Source: Escherichia phage vB_EcoD_Teewinot | Strand: one strand, 5' to 3' | Length of the DNA stretch: 41,800 nucleotides | Sequence record: NC_073053.1 | Shown here: one piece after another, positions 4,687 to 38,708 of the stretch | How the letters are laid out: each line of letters opens with the position of its first letter | Position numbering within the stretch: the stretch's first letter is position 1 | The notes under the pieces: generated by a model | Told to the model about the DNA's origin: nothing | The model's database searches: none | What the model saw: the letters and a program-made list of their open reading frames with translations, nothing else | Position numbers and translations under genes: made by a program

Positions 4687-5008
4687 ATATGCAGCGATCG
4701 GGGTGGTTATCGGCCTGGCGGTTGGCTTCTGGCTGGGTGATTCCTACCGCGCTGGCGTTGTGGCGAGCGCGGCGCAAGAAGCGCAAGCGAAAGCCCGACG
4801 GCAGCAAACTAAGGTTGTCGAGGGGGCAGTGCAGGCAGAACAGGCCCGCGACGTAGAATACCGGACTATCACGAAAGAGGTTGTAAAATATGTTACGCGT
4901 CCTAACCGTCCTGATTGTAGTTTTGATGCTGAGCGCGTGCGGATCAAGCAACGTGCCGTTGATGCCGCTAACGGAGTCGGCACTGCGACCGCCGTGCAAG
5001 TTCGATAA
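4679..5008 (+). CDS. i-spanin (Rz-like), putative
   Basis: N-terminal TM helix (IKYAAIGVVIGLAVGFWLG) followed by A/Q/E/K/R-rich helical region. GTG 4679 preceded by GGGGGT; the track gives a TTG start at 4649. A lipoprotein ORF is embedded in the +1 frame over its 3' end. Confidence 0.5.
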   Translation: MIKYAAIGVVIGLAVGFWLGDSYRAGVVASAAQEAQAKARRQQTKVVEGAVQAEQARDVEYRTITKEVVKYVTRPNRPDCSFDAERVRIKQRAVDAANGVGTATAVQVR

Positions 5009-5120
5009 CCCGTCCGCGGACCCCGACGAAGATTTGATGATTGACGTGAAAAATATGGAATGCGGCGCGAAGCTAAGGGCGCAAGTGCTGGAGTTGCAGA
5101 AAATAATTCGGGGGCCGTGA
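4890..5120 (+). CDS. o-spanin (Rz1-like outer-membrane lipoprotein), putative
   Basis: Signal peptide with lipobox (VLMLSAC-GSS), proline-containing mature part with a Cys; embedded out of frame in the 3' end of the preceding TM protein gene; stop codon sits in the loop of a terminator. Confidence 0.55.
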   Translation: MLRVLTVLIVVLMLSACGSSNVPLMPLTESALRPPCKFDNPSADPDEDLMIDVKNMECGAKLRAQVLELQKIIRGP

Positions 5121-5134
5121 TGGCCCCTTTTGTT
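5111..5134 (+). terminator. rho-independent terminator
   Basis: GGGGCC-gtgat-GGCCCC followed by TTTTGTT. Confidence 0.6.
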
Positions 5135-5250
5135 AGCGTGGAATACCGCAGATTTCGAGAGTCCATCATGATTGATTTGGCTTCGGTCGCTATTTCGTGG
5201 TCGCGCAGGATGTTAGCCAGAATCTGGTTTTTAATGTCTTTCGTCAGTCT

Positions 5251-5311
5251 CATTAGTGTGTCCTCGTTGTTGGTGTGCAACCAATATATGCAACCAATAC
5301 GAGGATTGCAA
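5251..5311 (-). promoter_or_regulatory. leftward promoter-RBS-ATG cassette (duplicate of the cassette at 38308-38369)
   Basis: On the minus strand: -35 TTGCAA (5311-5306), 17-bp spacer, -10 TATATT (5288-5283), two ATTGGTTGCA copies, GAGGA RBS (5265-5261), ATG (5253-5251). The 28-nt stretch TATATTGGTTGCACACCAACAA(C)GAGGAC is shared with the promoter of the gene at 38367. Confidence 0.45.
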
Positions 5312-11139: not shown

Positions 11140-11313
11140 TGCATAAAGTAAGCGGGACAAAAAGCGGGACAAACAAGGGGCGGGACAAAGCGGGACAGCA
11201 CCCCGTCCCCGCCAGTGCTGCCGCGGTTTTCAGCCGATCGGGACAGCGGGACAGCACCCCAGTCTTTCAGACTAGACGGGGGTCAATGGCCCCCCTCGTC
11301 TGAGACTGAATAA
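11140..11313. repeat. 174-bp GCGGGACA-array element, copy A
   Basis: Four tandem GCGGGACA units spaced about one helical turn apart, a variable centre, two more GGGACAG units, then a long imperfect hairpin (AGACGGGGG...CCCCCCTCGTCT). Near-identical copy at 37996-38169. Confidence 0.8.
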
Positions 11314-34159: not shown

Positions 34160-34190
34160 CTAAAAATAGGCCCGCAGATTAGCGGGCCGG
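34160..34190 (-). terminator. minus-strand terminator after the acidic protein gene
   Basis: On the minus strand GGCCCGC-taatct-GCGGGCC followed by TATTTTTAG. Confidence 0.5.
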
Positions 34191-34196
34191 AATACA

Positions 34197-34640
34197 TTAA
34201 TCTTCCAGTTCGAAATAGGTTTCGACGATTTCTTTTAAATCTTTGTGGAAGTCTTCAACGTCGTCGTCTTCCAGCTTGGCGATGGATTTAATTTCGAACG
34301 CTTCCAGCAGATCATCAAATTCGTCGTTCGCGTCGTCATCGTCACCACCGGCAATAATCGCGGCATACTGTTTGATTTCGTCGCGCATCTCTGCCAGCGG
34401 ATCGGCATCTTTCTTACCTTTGCCTTTCGCCGGTGCTTTTTTAGACTTAGCCGGTTTTTCGTCGTCGTCATCTTCTACGACTTCTTTTTTAGCCGGTTTT
34501 TCGTCGTCATCTTCGACAACTTCTTTTTTGGCCTTAGACGGCTTCTTGTCTTCCTGCTTACCAACGGTTTCATAATGCTTAGCGATGGTTTCCAGTGCTA
34601 CTACTCCGCGAGTGATCAGGTTTACGATTTGCTCAAACAT
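34197..34640 (-). CDS. acidic repeat protein (candidate early anti-defence/DNA-mimic protein)
   Basis: 147 aa from ATG 34640 (GGAG RBS); runs of D/E (EDDDE, EDDDDE, GGDDDDANDEFDD, EDDDVED) and a duplicated KKEVVEDDD(D)EKPAK unit; first gene after the leftward promoter, with its own terminator. Confidence 0.6.
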   Translation of the reverse strand: MFEQIVNLITRGVVALETIAKHYETVGKQEDKKPSKAKKEVVEDDDEKPAKKEVVEDDDDEKPAKSKKAPAKGKGKKDADPLAEMRDEIKQYAAIIAGGDDDDANDEFDDLLEAFEIKSIAKLEDDDVEDFHKDLKEIVETYFELED

Positions 34641-34836
34641 GGTATATCTCCGATTGGTTAAGTTTAGGTGTCGGCAGTTAACTTCGTCGGTGGCCTTAAC
34701 ATATTGCCAGGTTACGCGTTCTCCCGTTCGGGTAGTGGACCTGGTTATATAATCACGGTTGGGAATCCTGACACTTCGATCCGGCCCCTGCGTTGCCCCT
34801 CTCCAGTTTGCGTCCTGCATCCTGTCGACGGAGTGA

Positions 34837-34866
34837 ATGATAGATTGGTTGCAGGATGGGTGTCAA
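34837..34866 (-). promoter_or_regulatory. leftward sigma70-like promoter with ATTGGTTGCA in the spacer
   Basis: On the minus strand TTGACA (34866-34861), 18-bp spacer containing the motif, TATCAT (34842-34837). Confidence 0.4.
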
Positions 34867-34877
34867 CAACTAATTTC

Positions 34878-34913
34878 AAAAAAAAAAGCGCCGAGGCAAA
34901 ATGCACCGGCGCT
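34878..34913 (-). terminator. strong minus-strand terminator inside the divergent control region
   Basis: On the minus strand AGCGCCG-13 nt loop-CGGCGCT followed by a T10 run. Confidence 0.55.
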
Positions 34914-34943
34914 AACCAATAAGAGACAATGAGACGGGAATTA

Positions 34944-34971
34944 TTATTACACGCGTGCGCGCCCGTTTCAA
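34944..34971 (-). promoter_or_regulatory. leftward promoter candidate for a short terminated transcript
   Basis: On the minus strand TTGAAA (34971-34966), 16-bp spacer, TAATAA (34949-34944); the terminator at 34878-34913 lies about 30-60 nt downstream. Confidence 0.3.
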
Positions 34972-34983
34972 TATCCAAAGGAC

Positions 34984-35012
34984 TTGACACCTTGTGGTTT
35001 TAGGTGTAGTTT
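34984..35012 (+). promoter_or_regulatory. rightward sigma70-like promoter for the HTH/primase operon
   Basis: TTGACA (34984-34989), 17-bp spacer, TAGTTT (35007-35012); followed by inverted repeat TTGGT-cattA-ACCAA (35015-35029) and AGGAGA RBS. Confidence 0.45.
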
Positions 35013-35043
35013 CATTGGTCATTAACCAACAGGAGACTGAATT

Positions 35044-35373
35044 ATGAATATCAAAGAAGCAATTGAAGTGTTATCTAATGCAATCCGCGGCGAAGCGGGT
35101 AAATCCTGGTATTACACAAATGCGGTGGATACTCTGTTATTTGAAGTGTCCAGATTATCGCGTGCTGAGAAGGAGCTTACCGCGAAGCTGGAATTGCTCA
35201 ACGGCACGGCAGCAAGCAAGCTGCAAAAGCACAATGAAGAAATGGAAGAATACAAAAAACAGGTTATCCGTTTGCGCGCCGAGGGCAAATCCTGGGCGAT
35301 GATTGCCGAGTTGACCGGAATTAATCAGAGCACAGTGCGCTCCTGGGTACGCAATAATAAAACTTCTAAGTAA
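35044..35373 (+). CDS. HTH DNA-binding regulator
   Basis: 109 aa; C-terminal GKSWAMIAELTGINQSTVRSWV is a typical helix-turn-helix; first gene of the rightward operon. Confidence 0.65.
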   Translation: MNIKEAIEVLSNAIRGEAGKSWYYTNAVDTLLFEVSRLSRAEKELTAKLELLNGTAASKLQKHNEEMEEYKKQVIRLRAEGKSWAMIAELTGINQSTVRSWVRNNKTSK

Positions 35374-35383
35374 GGCCACGGCA

Positions 35384-37648
35384 ATGAACTTAATTAAATT
35401 CGCTGTAACACGACCCGCTAAAAAAGGCGAAAAAGCCAGGGCGGAAAACTTCCAGATGACCACCGATGAGTTTTTCGAATTTATTAATGATGCGAAAGAA
35501 ATATCCTCGGTGCATATCAACAAGACGGAAGATAAAGCGGAGTATGCGCGCCGCAAGCGTAAGGCTGATGGTATTGTGGCTTATACCCGTGACGGCTTAC
35601 GCCGCAAGACCAGTGCCGTGGACCGCTCGATCCTGTTCTTCGATATCGACCGTACCGACACCCGCACCCTGCGCCGCTGCCGTAAGGCTTTCATCGACGC
35701 GGGGCTGGAGCACGTATTTCACACCACAACCGGCGACCGCCACCCGCTGAAAGGCGGCACGCGTTGCGCTCGATTCCTGGTACTCACGGACAAGCCTGTA
35801 CCGGCTGAAGACCTGGGCCGTGTCCAGTATGCGCTATTACACCAACTGGGTCTGTCAGATGTGGACTTCGACGATTGCACGAAAGACACAAACCGCCTGA
35901 TGTACCTGCCACACCAGCAGTCTGTCGTTAAGTGCCACTACGGCAAGCGCGCCCGCGTCCGTCGTCTGCTCCGCCTGGCTGACAAGCTGGGAGTCGAGAA
36001 AGAGGAAGTACGCCGCGAACTGACCCAGGGCGATGATGGTGTGGCGGACGGTATTCTGGATTGGTGCTTCCAGGCGGGATTCGAACCGCTGTCGTCTGGT
36101 CGTGGTTATGAAGTGCCATGCCCGAACGAACACCTGCACAGCGGCGAAGGGTCCACCGCTATCTTGGTTAAGGATGGCGAGATCCGTTTCAAGTGTATGC
36201 ACACCGGCAACGAGTGTTGCTCGGAGCTGAACAGACACCAGCACCTGGCGCTACGTCTTATCGGGATCCCGGACCACCTGAACGTCGAGCCACACAACAT
36301 GTCCCGTAAGCAAATCGCCGCCATCCTCCCCGGACTGGACGACGAGGAAGTGGAATCGTGCTATGAACATATCGTTGATGCGGTCGGAGACGGCGACGAG
36401 TACGGCGTGTGTACTGATGCAGACCTGGACAACGAGCCGGTCGCACTGTTCAGTAAGCACGACCCGATCATCGAAGGCCTGGTCAACTTCAAATCGACCT
36501 GGTATCTCGCCGGTGAGTCGAACATCGGTAAATCGTTCTACGTGCTGGGGCAAATGGGTGCGGTTGCCGCGGGGATTCCGTTCGGCGGTGCGAAGGTCGT
36601 CCAGTCCCATTGCTTCTATTTCGACGCGGAAGGTGGCGAAGCCTCCAACCAGCGTAAGGAAGCATTGCAGATCAAATACGAGCACGACCTCGACAAGCTG
36701 CACATTATCGATCTGCAATCACGCGGCTGGGATATCACCAGCAAATCCGGCTTGCGTGAAGTTATCAGCTTCATCAACCGCACCGCTAACGGCGAACCGG
36801 TTGGCCTGGTGGCGTTCGACTCACTCAACCAGACGGTTGCGCTGCGGTCCGCCGATGCTAAACCGTTCGACGAGAACAACGCCAGCGATATGGGTGAAGT
36901 GGTCAAAGCGCTGAAGGCCATCGCGGAAAATACAGGCGGCAGTGCTGGCGTCATCCACCACCCGGCGAAGGGTGCAAACGGCAGCAGATCCCCCCGCGGG
37001 TCCGGCGCGCTGCATGGTGCTGTAGATTCCGCGTTCTTCCTGGAGCAACCGGACGACAATCAGCCCGGACAACTTAACCTGTATCACGAGAAGGCACGTA
37101 ACGGCATCAAGCAAGCGCCGCGCGGCTTCGTCCTGCTCAAGTGCAAGGTTAAGGTGGATCTCCGCAAGTCCGAGGCGTTCGAGGCGCACCAGTCCACCAG
37201 CACCGGGCCAGACTTCGGCGACGTGGTTGCCGGATGGGACGTCAAGCCGATTGCCTCCACGCCACGCGACGAGACTCTCTACCTCGTACCGGTCGCCCTG
37301 GCACCGTTCGCTATAGAACAGGCGAAGGCGGCTGGCAAGGCCGCGGTTAAGGACGAGAATGCCGCAGGACCGCGCAACGAAAAAGAGAAAGTGCTTTATG
37401 CGGCACTGGAAAAACTGATGGAAGATAACCCGGACCATACCGGATTCAGCAAATCGGCAATTGTCCGCCAGGCGGGATTGGCAAAAGGTGGAACATCTAC
37501 GAAGGCAATAGACGATATGGTTGAGCGCGGAGTGTTAGGTTTTTATACCGATCCGCACACCGGGGCCATCTATGGGTCGTCGAATATAGTCATCAAAACG
37601 AATATACCCATCACGCTTTCTGCGACCGATGACGACCTGAAAGATTAA
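35384..37648 (+). CDS. primase-helicase (AEP-type primase domain plus P-loop ATPase)
   Basis: 754 aa; N-terminal SILFFDIDRTD (hhhDhD primase-polymerase motif) and DDCTKDTNRLMYLP, a Cys/His zinc-binding segment, then Walker A GESNIGKS. Confidence 0.7.
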   Translation: MNLIKFAVTRPAKKGEKARAENFQMTTDEFFEFINDAKEISSVHINKTEDKAEYARRKRKADGIVAYTRDGLRRKTSAVDRSILFFDIDRTDTRTLRRCRKAFIDAGLEHVFHTTTGDRHPLKGGTRCARFLVLTDKPVPAEDLGRVQYALLHQLGLSDVDFDDCTKDTNRLMYLPHQQSVVKCHYGKRARVRRLLRLADKLGVEKEEVRRELTQGDDGVADGILDWCFQAGFEPLSSGRGYEVPCPNEHLHSGEGSTAILVKDGEIRFKCMHTGNECCSELNRHQHLALRLIGIPDHLNVEPHNMSRKQIAAILPGLDDEEVESCYEHIVDAVGDGDEYGVCTDADLDNEPVALFSKHDPIIEGLVNFKSTWYLAGESNIGKSFYVLGQMGAVAAGIPFGGAKVVQSHCFYFDAEGGEASNQRKEALQIKYEHDLDKLHIIDLQSRGWDITSKSGLREVISFINRTANGEPVGLVAFDSLNQTVALRSADAKPFDENNASDMGEVVKALKAIAENTGGSAGVIHHPAKGANGSRSPRGSGALHGAVDSAFFLEQPDDNQPGQLNLYHEKARNGIKQAPRGFVLLKCKVKVDLRKSEAFEAHQSTSTGPDFGDVVAGWDVKPIASTPRDETLYLVPVALAPFAIEQAKAAGKAAVKDENAAGPRNEKEKVLYAALEKLMEDNPDHTGFSKSAIVRQAGLAKGGTSTKAIDDMVERGVLGFYTDPHTGAIYGSSNIVIKTNIPITLSATDDDLKD

Positions 37649-37960
37649 ATTTTGCGCGCATTGGGAATTCCCATATCGCTAAAGATTAAATTTTGCGCGC
37701 ATTGGTTGCCATTTTGGGAATTCCCATATCGCTAAAGATTAAATTTTGCGCGCATTGGTTGCCGATATGGGAATTCCCATATCGCTAAAGATTAAATTTT
37801 GCGCGCATTGGTTGCCATTTTGGGAATTCCCATATCGCTAAAGATTAAATTTTGCGCGTATTGGTTGCCATTTTGGGAATTCCCATATCGCTAAAGATTA
37901 AATTTTGCGCGTATTGGTTGCCATTTTGGGTGTTTTTAACTGGTCGTATTGGTTGCCGTG
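37640..37960. repeat. iteron array, about six tandem 53-bp repeats (candidate origin of replication)
   Basis: Unit AAAGATTAAATTTTGCGCGCATTGGTTGCCATTTTGGGAATTCCCATATCGCT at 37681, 37734, 37787, 37840, a 41-bp first copy at 37640 (12-bp deletion) and a degenerate sixth; each has the palindrome TGGGAATTCCCA, extended to GATATGGGAATTCCCATATC in the third copy. Starts in the last codons of the primase-helicase gene. Confidence 0.75.
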
Positions 37961-37995: not shown

Positions 37996-38169
37996 TGCAT
38001 AAAGTAAGCGGGACAAAAAGCGGGACAAACAAGGGGCGGGACAAAGCGGGACAGCACCCCCGTCCCGCCCCGGATGGCGCGGCTTTCAGAGGAGCGGGAC
38101 AGCGGGACAGCACCCCAGTCTTTCAGACTAGACGGGGGTCAGTGGCCCCCCTCGTCTGAGACTGAATAA
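37996..38169. repeat. 174-bp GCGGGACA-array element, copy B
   Basis: Same length as copy A (11140-11313); identical over the first 60-odd bp and the last 70-odd bp except one A/G difference, with a diverged roughly 40-bp centre. Confidence 0.8.
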
Positions 38170-38307
38170 AATCCCAATACACGGCAGCATAGTGAAAATT
38201 GCGTCGAGGGTAGAACTCGGCAACCAATGCGGGTTGGATAATGGAGAGTGGGAAATGCAGCCACCGCGGATAGCGATCAACTTTTTCATGCGCATGATTA
38301 ATATTGG

Positions 38308-38336
38308 TTGCATTCGTGCCAGCACCCTGCTATATT
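38308..38336 (+). promoter_or_regulatory. sigma70-like promoter built from two ATTGGTTGCA copies
   Basis: TTGCAT (38308-38313, from motif copy 1), 17-bp spacer, TATATT (38331-38336), then motif copy 2 (38334-38343), GAGGA RBS and ATG 38367. Confidence 0.45.
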
Positions 38337-38366
38337 GGTTGCACACCAACAAGAGGACTGCACAAA

Positions 38367-38708
38367 ATGAAATTTCCAGTAACTATCACCGGCAACGACC
38401 ACGGCACTTACGAGAGTACCAAAATGAAAGCATTAATCTGGAATTACACAATGGCGATGGCAAAGCTGAACGAAGCGAAAGCGCTGAACGGCAACATCGA
38501 CCGCGCGGCACATATCGTAATACTGGCACAGCAGGCAATCATGTGCGCGCTCGACGGCATGGATGAACTGGCGAAGGCAATTCACGAATACGCGCAGGCA
38601 TTCTCCCGTGAGCGCCTGGCATATCGCTTCGGGATCGGCGAGACGGCAGTGACAAACGTCGCCCGGATTAAAGCCCAGCGCGAACTATTCGCCCAGCTTG
38701 CGAAATAA
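38367..38708 (+). CDS. hypothetical protein
   Basis: 113 aa from ATG 38367 (GAGGA RBS); the track start at 38304 lies inside the promoter. Confidence 0.55.
   Translation: MKFPVTITGNDHGTYESTKMKALIWNYTMAMAKLNEAKALNGNIDRAAHIVILAQQAIMCALDGMDELAKAIHEYAQAFSRERLAYRFGIGETAVTNVARIKAQRELFAQLAK

Follow-up and report, generated by a model that had tools for sequence, protein, structure and literature searches.

Three predicted promoters, a candidate small RNA and a structured leader RNA in the divergent early region of a Dhillonvirus

We analyzed a divergent intergenic region of Escherichia phage vB_EcoD_Teewinot, taking as the window the whole stretch of 41,800 nucleotides (nt) under sequence record NC_073053.1. 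The region, referred to below as the hub, occupies a 400-bp gap between a leftward operon of replication and recombination genes and a rightward operon that codes for a small helix-turn-helix (HTH) protein and a primase-helicase of 754 aa (Table 1). On balance we favor reading it as the central divergent promoter region of a virulent phage, with three promoters (PR, P2, and P1), a small RNA of about 57 nt, and a structured leader RNA. The original prediction, made from the letters of the sequence alone, had placed a divergent early control region here, and the location between these two operons bears this out. Its observations and its forecast of a short RNA held up, while its analogy with the lambda switch and its alternative of an attenuator did not.

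The source phage is a virulent member of the genus Dhillonvirus. A segment of 801 bp around the locus shares 95 to 98.5% identity with many genomes of this genus, whose members are small HK578-like siphoviruses of Escherichia coli, and a similarity search with the locus matched 173 phage records, with genomes of 42 to 47 kb plus one record of 88.6 kb. The genus is known from isolates as a group of small lytic siphoviruses (PMC11990801).

TABLE 1 Features of the hub and its surroundings, in window positions
Feature	Position	Strand	Details
PR, rightward promoter, sigma70 type	34984-35012	+	TTGACA (34984-34989), 17-nt spacer, TAGTTT (35007-35012)
Promoter P2, leftward	34971->34943	-	TTGAAA, 17-nt spacer, TG-n-AATAAT; scanner 10/12 plus upstream TG
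Promoter P1, leftward	34866->34837	-	TTGACA, 18-nt spacer, TATCAT; scanner 11/12
Operator-like inverted repeat	35015-35029		TTGGT-CATTA-ACCAA; over the expected PR start site; invariant in relatives
Motif ATTGGTTGCA	34844-34853		Inside the promoter P1 spacer
Motif copy TTGGTTGC	34845-34852		Written on the plus strand; promoter P1 spacer; invariant in relatives
Predicted small RNA, ~57 nt	~G34935 to ~34879	-	GUCUCAUUGUCUCUUAUUGGUUA, then hairpin, then U10
Small-RNA 5' seed, 22 nt	34935-34914	-	GUCUCAUUGUCUCUUAUUGGUU; single-stranded
Terminator hairpin	34913-34887	-	GC-rich stem, then U10 (34887-34878)
Primase-helicase start	35380-35387	+	GGCAAUGA pairs with seed UCAUUGUC, 8 bp including one G-U
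Start of the 83-aa second leftward gene	34154-34145	-	GAGACAAUGG; 10-bp seed match, alternative target
Structured leader RNA, 160 nt	34829->34670	-	Begins at the promoter P1 start site
Helix P1 (closing)	34829-34822 with 34677-34670	-
Helix P2 hairpin	~34821-34805	-	GGA loop
Core strand	34804-34798	-	GGAGAGG
Helix P3	34784-34779 with 34772-34767	-	CUUGAU/GUCAGG, loop CGWAGU
Helix P4a	34751/34750 with 34697/34698; 34748-34746 with 34701-34703	-
Helix P4b	34744-34739 with 34712-34707	-	More than nine different sequences
Helix P5 hairpin	34735-34721	-	GNRA-type loop
Rest of leader, then acidic gene	34197-34669	-	ACCUAAACUUAACCAAUCGGAGAUAUACC precedes the acidic gene
Acidic protein, 147 aa, first leftward gene	ATG 34640-34638, within 34197-34669	-	GGAG Shine-Dalgarno (SD) sequence; open reading frame read from the sequence
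Intrinsic terminator 3' of the acidic gene, inside the leftward operon	34169-34188	-	Scanner call
HTH protein, 109 aa	35044-35373	+	HTH C-terminal; Pfam HTH_23 (3e-7), Sigma70_r4_2 (7e-7)
Rightward operon (HTH gene, primase-helicase)	From 35044	+
Replication/recombination operon	~34.6 kb down to 22.3 kb	-
Structural genes	Up to ~21 kb	+

Promoters and operator-like sites

All three promoters that had been proposed for the region were found where they were expected. PR, placed at 34984-35012 with an inverted repeat at its start site, was present when the sequence was read directly, and so was the repeat; its -35 hexamer agrees with the consensus at 6 of 6 positions and its -10 hexamer at 3 of 6, and it was because of the latter that the promoter scanner did not call it. 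At the equivalent place HK578 carries TTGACA-17-TAGTAT. Promoter P2, predicted at 34944-34971, stands back-to-back with PR, with 12 bp between the two -35 hexamers, and promoter P1, the second leftward promoter (predicted at 34837-34866, with a motif in its spacer), begins 12 nt past the U-tract of the small-RNA terminator described below.

Over 3 kb, a consensus scan gives 3 promoter-like sites, and shuffled sequence gives 2.8 +/- 1.8. Matches of this kind are thus at chance level, and the case for the promoters rests on the comparison with relatives, for which we used 15 distinct Dhillonvirus versions of the region. All 15 keep the six promoter hexamers, the -10 element of promoter P1 being TATCAT, TAATAT, or TATTAT only, and the hexamers and upstream TG of promoter P2 are unchanged, with rare changes in its spacer only. 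The PR spacer varies freely, as do the 5 nt between the -10 element of promoter P2 and its predicted +1. A divergent relative (L016) has another promoter in the place of P2, TTGCGC-17-TATTAT. With a spacing of 16 to 18 bp and hexamers that are kept while spacers drift, PR, P2, and P1 have the appearance of sigma70-type promoters, and we infer that they are active.

The promoter P2 spacer (34949-34965; CGGGCGCGCACGCGTG(T)) is GC-rich, alternates almost perfectly between purines and pyrimidines, and is conserved far above the PR spacer; it might tend to form Z-DNA or respond to supercoiling, or else be a protein site between the back-to-back promoters. An inverted repeat ATCCTG/CAGGAT around the -10 element of promoter P1, which goes with a weak DUF2693-FD match at 34819-34857, was dropped from consideration, being unconserved in relatives.

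The motif that had been noted in the promoter P1 spacer is indeed there, but it belongs to a genome-wide set of sites that had been missed. Counted as ATTGGTTGC, the motif TTGGTTGC has 21 copies in the genome against 1.85 +/- 1.47 expected, mostly in intergenic positions at promoters. It forms a -35-like TTGCAN at 38304 (17 nt before TATATT), 21523, and 27752, and it lies in the spacers of promoter P1 and of a promoter at 5311-5282 (site 5297). At PR, 5284, and 38335 the sites of the family sit at +1. The inverted repeat TTGGT-N5-ACCAA occurs three times (5270-5284, 35015-35029, and 38335-38349) against 0.05 expected, each copy standing between a -10 element and ACA(R)GAGGA/GGAGA-ATG, and this shared placement indicates that the three promoter/operator/leader cassettes are homologous. 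The pattern would fit a phage DNA-binding regulator that represses from sites at +1 or in a spacer and may activate from sites at -35, and the 109-aa HTH protein is the candidate binder of these TTGGT/TTGGTTGC sites.

One of the cassettes stands before a minus-strand gene (ATG 5253, about 169 aa; 4744-5311) that is embedded in the plus-strand structural module. It consists of TTGCAA-17-TATATT, then TTGGTTGCACACCAAC, then GAGGAC-ATG, and its homology to the PR cassette and to that at 38304-38370 suggests that the gene is probably coregulated with the early genes.

Five of the copies of TTGGTTGC lie in a 53-bp tandem array directly 3' of the primase-helicase gene. The five repeats (37661-37930, and 37949-37956) each contain ATTGGTTGCC and the palindrome GGGAATTCCC, and they look like iterons or a replication origin, or like a titration array for the TTGGTTGC-binding factor. 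Short repeats of the GCGGGACA type are found at 38006-38115 and at 11216-11260, with AAGCGGGACAAA repeated 3.8 times at 38006-38053, and the string CGGGACAGCGGGACAGCACCCC occurs twice, at about 38090-38115 and about 11235-11260.

A 21-nt direct repeat associated with promoters (aaATAGCACnnnTTGnTAAAA) has been described in phage TLS and T1-like phages (PMC11447400), and in JK16 and KMI8 the T1-like repeat precedes the leader RNA treated below. Like this repeat and the MotA box of T4, TTGGTTGC is short, present in about 20 copies, and mostly intergenic at promoters. It differs from both in its sequence, and some of its sites are arranged as inverted repeats at start sites, an arrangement that suggests not only activation but also repression.

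Among the flanking genes, the HTH protein has a homolog in HK578 (45% identity) at the equivalent position; its names in GenBank vary (transposase, resolvase, "DNA recombination nuclease inhibitor gamma"). The first leftward gene codes for a protein of acidic composition that matches PHROG 3127, a family of unknown function, and a profile search recognized no Pfam domain and no DNA-binding domain in it. This acidic protein (34197-34640, minus strand) contains a tandem KKEVVEDDDEKPAK repeat and ranges from 138 to 180 aa among relatives, including L016. The terminator at its 3' side is kept in relatives both with and without the leader RNA. In many GenBank records the leader RNA or the small-RNA gene is covered by an annotated hypothetical protein, and two records under the names Campylobacter phage A144 and Acinetobacter phage NJ01 (GenBank MG065648 and OQ221563) show about 89% and 94% identity to Dhillonviruses over the intergenic region.

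A predicted small RNA and its possible targets

In agreement with the strong leftward terminator that had been predicted at 34878-34913, a GC-rich hairpin followed by U10 lies between promoters P2 and P1. It folds into an outer stem of 8 bp and an inner stem of 3 bp (centroid, -16.9 kcal/mol), the rest of the 73-nt test sequence being unpaired, and a simple scanner missed it, as the loop is longer than 8 nt. On the plus strand no T-run follows the hairpin, so that termination would be leftward only. Its stem reads GCGCCG/CGGCGC in the window, UCCCCG/CGGGGA in two relatives (L086/LM40P1 and L118), and AUCCCCAG/CUGGGGAU in L016, which means that it has been compensated in two independent lineages, and the U-tract measures 8 to 13 nt among relatives. 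These features, compensatory stem change included, are those to be expected of an intrinsic (Rho-independent) terminator.

A transcript that starts at promoter P2 and stops at this terminator would measure about 57 nt, which lies within the 30 to 60 nt foreseen for a short minus-strand RNA. This remains the best-supported reading of the segment, and the RNA probably exists as a discrete species. The rightward neighbors of the terminator are all on the plus strand, which leaves promoter P2 as the only evident source of transcripts for it. In both the minimum free energy and the centroid structures the 5' part of the RNA is unpaired; it is rich in pyrimidines, with CAU at its center. The 22-nt seed is unchanged in relatives, and the conserved stretch sets in very close to the predicted +1, right after 5 nt that vary. 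In L016 the promoter, the 3' half, and the stem all differ, yet the 10-nt core CUCAUUGUCU is kept. With its own promoter, an unpaired and conserved seed, and a hairpin with a long U tail, the predicted RNA has the anatomy of the base-pairing type, and it would probably bind Hfq. Relatives with 37 to 45% identity in the primase likewise have PR and P1 back-to-back, separated by about 60 nt, and no small-RNA module, which indicates that the module is a discrete insertion specific to Dhillonvirus. A search of Rfam 15 over the small RNA at E<=10 returned weak terminator-type matches only, none of them at the gathering threshold.

A cis-antisense RNA was considered and rejected, as there is no plus-strand gene at 34878-34935; the only open reading frame opposite, a short one on the plus strand at 34929-34988, has its frame broken by 1-nt indels in relatives.

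The hairpin and U-tract could also be an insulator, promoter P2 being nonfunctional and the terminator serving only to stop stray leftward (antisense) transcription from the rightward operon short of promoter P1 and the leftward operon. Terminators are common between divergent or tandem units, and the chance frequency of promoter-like matches would suit such a role. An insulator, however, would not account for the 22 invariant nt between promoter P2 and the hairpin, next to which the discriminator varies, or for the invariance of the promoter P2 hexamers and TG. Moreover, a promoter, the 10-nt core, and a terminator all persist in L016 though all three flanks have diverged, and the distant relatives cope without any insulator, so we consider this explanation unlikely.

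Another possibility is that the conserved sequences act as DNA, as operators, as an origin-associated region, or as a supercoiling-sensitive element, to which proteins of the phage or the host would bind, with the small RNA being incidental. TTGGTTA/TTGGTTGC half-sites are found in the small-RNA gene itself (34914-34920), in the promoter P1 spacer, at PR, and in the five 53-bp repeats, and the promoter P2 spacer, with its alternating purine-pyrimidine tract, is conserved beyond the needs of a spacer. Against this, the compensatory changes in the stem point to selection on the folded strand, and the core conserved in L016 is CUCAUUGUCU and not a TTGGTT site. DNA and RNA roles are not mutually exclusive, and a DNA role with an incidental RNA seems quite improbable to us.

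The attenuator that had been offered as the alternative to a small RNA fares worse. Here, transcripts from promoter P2 would stop at the hairpin until some factor switched on read-through into the leftward operon, and the tandem order of promoter P2, terminator, and promoter P1 on one strand, with a structured RNA downstream, is the order one would expect. The 5' part of the transcript is unstructured, though, and we found neither an alternative hairpin for antiterminator pairing nor a leader peptide. The GC hairpin and U10 predict efficient termination, and promoter P1, a match of 11/12 situated 12 nt past the U-tract, makes read-through unnecessary. Regulated attenuation is therefore very unlikely.

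A bistable switch of the lambda type, in which repressors acting on shared operators between divergent promoters pick the developmental program, had been suggested by the divergent promoters, the inverted repeat at one start site, and the neighboring HTH gene, but it is scarcely tenable and already contradicted by the following observations. A search of 5,426 complete E. coli genomes turned up no copy of the leader region or of the surrounding 3.4 kb (34200-37600). Such a switch would thus have no prophage state to control, and the genus is isolated as lytic phages (PMC11990801). Two antagonistic divergent repressor genes are not found either, as only the first rightward gene codes for an HTH protein and the first leftward gene codes for the acidic protein and not for a repressor. 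Instead of multiple adjacent operators over both divergent promoters, or a tripartite shared operator, there are one inverted repeat (at the +1 of PR) and one motif (in the promoter P1 spacer), about 165 bp apart and with one transcription unit between them.

For the predicted small RNA, we searched for targets by ungapped complementarity (G-U allowed) centered on start codons, with all 1,135 ATGs of the window as the null. The frequency per ATG was 0.076 for matches of at least 8 bp, 0.037 for at least 9 bp, 0.015 for at least 10 bp, and <0.001 for at least 12 bp. The match at the primase-helicase start, of 8 bp in the window, extends to 9 bp in typical relatives and to 10 bp in phage rolling. 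It reaches 12 bp in L086 (GAGACGAUGAGA), and in L016 there are 12 perfect bp with that phage's own diverged seed (GACAAUGAGCAA). The HTH-like first gene is matched over 10 bp in CHD5UKE2 (HK578-like) and over 8 bp in HK578. An alternative target is the start of the 83-aa second leftward gene, whose match to the seed is conserved in Dhillonviruses and absent from L016. The comparative signal suggests, without being decisive, the first genes of the rightward replication operon, and we put forward only tentatively that the small RNA regulates the primase-helicase/HTH operon specifically; the seed may also have a target in the host, which its invariance could reflect.

Both divergent first genes carry UAACCAA-N2-3-GGAGA just 5' of the start codon (34642-34669 and 35020-35040). 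Compared by eye, UCUCUUAUUGGUUA, which forms the 3' half of the seed, is complementary to the SD regions of these two genes at 14/15 (35020-35040) and 13/14 (34642-34669) positions. This pairing is lost in relatives in which the HTH leader is ACUGAGGG, and we regard it as no more than a possibility.

A structured leader RNA shared by lytic phages

The original prediction had recognized the second leftward promoter, P1, and overlooked the structured RNA that begins at its predicted start site. This leader has six helices, five of which were counted on an alignment of 28 distinct sequences. The register was curated: the variable helix P2 was removed, and the registers of helices P1 and P4b were set by complementarity. 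On this alignment, pairing reaches 96.5% of cells against 67.9 +/- 1.3% in shuffles, 24 of the 30 pairs change on both sides, and sliding the partners by 1 to 3 columns reduces pairing to 29 to 41%. The G-C/G-U alternations fit the minus strand only.

Helix P1, of 5 to 8 bp, occurs as GGGCGGCG/CGCCGCCC, GACGGGC/GCCCGUC, AGGCAG/CUGCCU, and GAGGCG/CGCCUU, and as GUCGACAG/CUGCCGAC in the window. The stem of helix P2 is variable and its loop is always (A)GGA (GCGGCAA-GGA-UUGCUGC in JK16, AGCUAUA-AGGA-UAUAGCU in L068). Helix P3 shows independent double changes in L068, KMI8, and KA2-1, and helices P4a and P4b form a long irregular arm. At one pair position of the block, CCAGG/CCUGG is replaced by CCCGG/CCGGG or CCUGG/CCAGG in relatives. 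A contact between the GGA loop of helix P2 and UCC would be possible. RNAalifold run on a plain MAFFT alignment misregistered the variable helices (proposing a UCAGG/CCGUGA hairpin and a GGGGCY/GGCYACC stem) and was set aside; the variants in L068, KMI8, KA2-1, and L072 support helix P3 instead.

A covariance model of the leader recovered 36 copies with 124 to 149 bits, the window copy scoring 137 bits at 34668-34815. As helix P2 is left out of the model, matches start inside the element (at 34815 in the window). Nothing else reached E<=1 in 600 kb that included chance pattern matches, the Dhillonviruses without the element, L016, and the distant relatives.

Within the genus, most Dhillonviruses have the block of about 150 bp (34672-34816), and some (L004, L006, L010, and L015) lack it. 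A search with it matched 170 phage records, about 135 of them Dhillonviruses. The leader was also found in Drexlerviridae (PHB17, JK16, tunus, JLBYU07, and KMI8), in Sortsnevirus (sortkaff and IME279), in Jilinvirus (PT1), and in HeidiAbel_Bas97, Arya, and KA2-1, and it occurs in at least six lytic phage lineages. It is always intergenic, in the sense orientation with its flanking genes and directly after a sigma70-like promoter, and the first gene 3' of it differs from lineage to lineage; in several phages it sits after a primase or helicase gene. Scans of metagenomes, viral contigs, and bacterial genomes revealed no further lineage, and all true matches were on phage-sized contigs. In the bacterial genomes, a three-block pattern gave 18 matches, of which 17 were due to chance (they fail the covariance model) and one was on a phage-like scaffold. 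This scaffold of 42.7 kb (QFQS01000013.1), binned as a metagenome-assembled genome of Cereibacter sphaeroides, carries a leader RNA of the sortkaff type and is probably a coliphage genome.

The leader family is previously undescribed and common to unrelated lytic phages. It has no match in Rfam 15, either for the window at gathering thresholds, for the locus at E<=10, or for five other lineages. Host mimicry or a prophage origin was rejected, since the 5,426 complete E. coli genomes contain no match to the leader, and a coding function was rejected as well. Every frame is closed in one lineage or another, and the changes are of a compensatory and not a synonymous kind; in the window, the frame that starts at ATG 34820 reads into the acidic gene without a stop. 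A text match for ACCGACGAAG in the literature turned out to be an unrelated IscB guide sequence.

In the distant relatives the leader reads CGUCAAC-CGACAC, and in the window the structured RNA is flanked by CGUCGAC and CGACAC, which would fit an insertion into an ancestral leader. Judging from its distribution, the element appears to be an accessory module exchanged horizontally between phages. Phage Sponge (L121) has a duplication of about 25 to 30 bp over the leader end and the promoter P1 region (locus 930-985), with CTCTCCAGTTTGCG and ATAGATTGGTTG both repeated, which shows that the leader/promoter P1 junction is prone to rearrangement. Antisense to the leader, a perfect TATAAT lies at 34747-34752 on the plus strand, inside the Dhillonvirus-specific UUAUAUAA junction; as other lineages have GGCC there, it is probably incidental.

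As to the role of the leader, a covarying structure with five invariant strands between the helices is what is seen in riboswitch aptamers. The element always starts at a predicted transcription start, is never followed by a terminator of its own, and has an SD sequence within 15 to 45 nt, all of which speaks for a cis-acting 5' domain. Its promoter-proximal position in an early operon would fit a put-type antitermination element in all lineages. The terminator behind the first gene, however, is present with or without the leader, and most lineages have no intrinsic terminator within 1.1 to 2.5 kb downstream. We tentatively propose that it binds a protein or ligand and thereby regulates translation or stability; an elongation or antitermination element and a processed trans-acting RNA or decoy are both rather unlikely, and it is conceivable, if doubtful, that the leader does something else altogether. 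That some members of one genus carry the leader and others lack it, and that it has moved between families, suggests an accessory benefit that depends on the host, and a role in anti-defense is possible.

Proposed working of the hub and comparison with known systems

We propose that the three promoters would all be read by the sigma70 RNA polymerase of the host. PR would transcribe the genes of the small HTH protein and the primase-helicase, and the TTGGT/TTGGTTGC sites, including the repeat at the PR start site, would be operators of a phage protein, most plausibly the HTH protein itself. Promoter P2 would produce the RNA of about 57 nt that ends at the intrinsic terminator and that may base-pair over the start codons or SD sequences of early genes and so reduce their translation. 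With the primase-helicase (or HTH) start as its best-supported target, it would act as a governor of the replication genes. Promoter P1 would transcribe the leader from its first nucleotide, ahead of the leftward operon, and the leader would most likely be a cis-acting 5' domain that binds a protein or ligand and so sets the expression, stability, or elongation of the operon.

Several points weigh against this scheme. The readings of the small RNA and of the hub rest on sequence comparison, and we found no transcriptome or RNA study of a Dhillonvirus in the literature. The -10 element of PR is weak, and the unusual conservation of the promoter P2 spacer may reflect a role at the DNA level. The match between the seed and the primase-helicase start in the window, at just 8 bp, has a probability of about 0.08, other start codons of the window match the seed equally well or better, and in one relative (L078) the primase-helicase match is 5 bp only. 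A duplex-energy scan of the whole window was dominated by GU-rich sites, with no translation start near the top, and it was replaced by the start-codon-centered test. In the leader, the registers of helices P1 and P4b, having been set by hand, both lean toward the structure, and no pairing was found for the invariant strands between the helices (GGAGAGGRGYRACGCWGGGG, AUUCCYAACCGUGA, CACU, AGAACGC, and GGCYACCGACGARG). A riboswitch would be expected to have an expression platform, but neither a terminator nor a conserved anti-SD follows helix P1, and the downstream genes are unrelated; for antitermination, there is no downstream terminator that is consistent across the lineages. Any mechanism given for the leader is a guess.

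Other phages encode short regulatory RNAs that have a promoter and an intrinsic terminator to themselves, such as OOP of lambda, sar of P22, and c4 of P1/P7. The predicted small RNA resembles them in its length (55 to 80 nt in this class), in a constitutive-looking promoter within a phage control region, in its Rho-independent end, and in the proposed reduction of early gene expression by pairing near a translation start. OOP and sar are of the cis-antisense type and overlap the gene on which they act. In contrast, nothing is encoded opposite the small RNA, and the complementary start codons are 450 to 790 nt away, so that pairing would be short and imperfect (8 to 12 bp). As the phage is virulent, the RNA cannot serve a choice between lysis and lysogeny.

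The unpaired 5' seed, the A/U-rich stretch by a GC hairpin, and the long U tail are shared with the Hfq-dependent RNAs of enterobacteria and prophages (DicF and the "seed plus terminator" design), as is the complementarity of the seed to SD and AUG regions. Unlike DicF-type RNAs, the predicted RNA is encoded by a lytic phage and has no Rfam family, and its binding to Hfq is a prediction. There is also a likeness to CopA of plasmid R1, one of the antisense RNAs that restrain plasmid replication by holding down the translation of an initiator or primase, in that a short RNA encoded beside replication genes would be made constitutively and is predicted to pair with the translation start of a replication protein. 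The antisense RNAs of plasmid replication are fully complementary cis transcripts that interact through kissing loops, whereas here there would be a short trans seed only, and the link to the primase-helicase comes from comparative complementarity.

The leader, for its part, is comparable to the put RNAs of HK022, to EAR, and to riboswitch aptamers, as it would start with the transcript of a long early operon, is highly structured with joining strands that do not vary, and occurs whatever gene follows it. The put RNAs are antiterminator elements of two stems and about 70 nt. The leader, with 160 nt, six helices, and no consistent downstream terminator, is set apart from them by this description only.

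Among coliphages, Dhillonviruses and T1-like phages belong to those isolated most often, and they include BASEL reference phages and candidates for therapy; no experimental map of their early regulation was found in the literature. In the hub, a discrete predicted small RNA with a conserved seed occurs together with a family of operator-like sites for which the HTH protein is the candidate binder, and nature supplies variants that have the leader and variants that lack it. Whatever the two RNAs do, many GenBank records would be put right by annotating them. With its strong covariation, invariant junction strands, and lack of an Rfam match, the leader is a good candidate for a new RNA family. 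Whether it forms a new functional class (a riboswitch-like sensor, an element that modifies RNA polymerase or the ribosome, or an anti-defense decoy) that is horizontally mobile among unrelated virulent siphoviruses of enterobacteria, with the 57-nt RNA governing the translation of the primase-helicase, is a bolder and rather doubtful proposition. If the leader did sense a ligand, modify the transcription machinery, or counter a host defense, it would represent a new kind of RNA tool in phages, and if the scheme as a whole is true, the leader and the 57-nt RNA would provide a lytic phage with an RNA-based circuit for its early genes.

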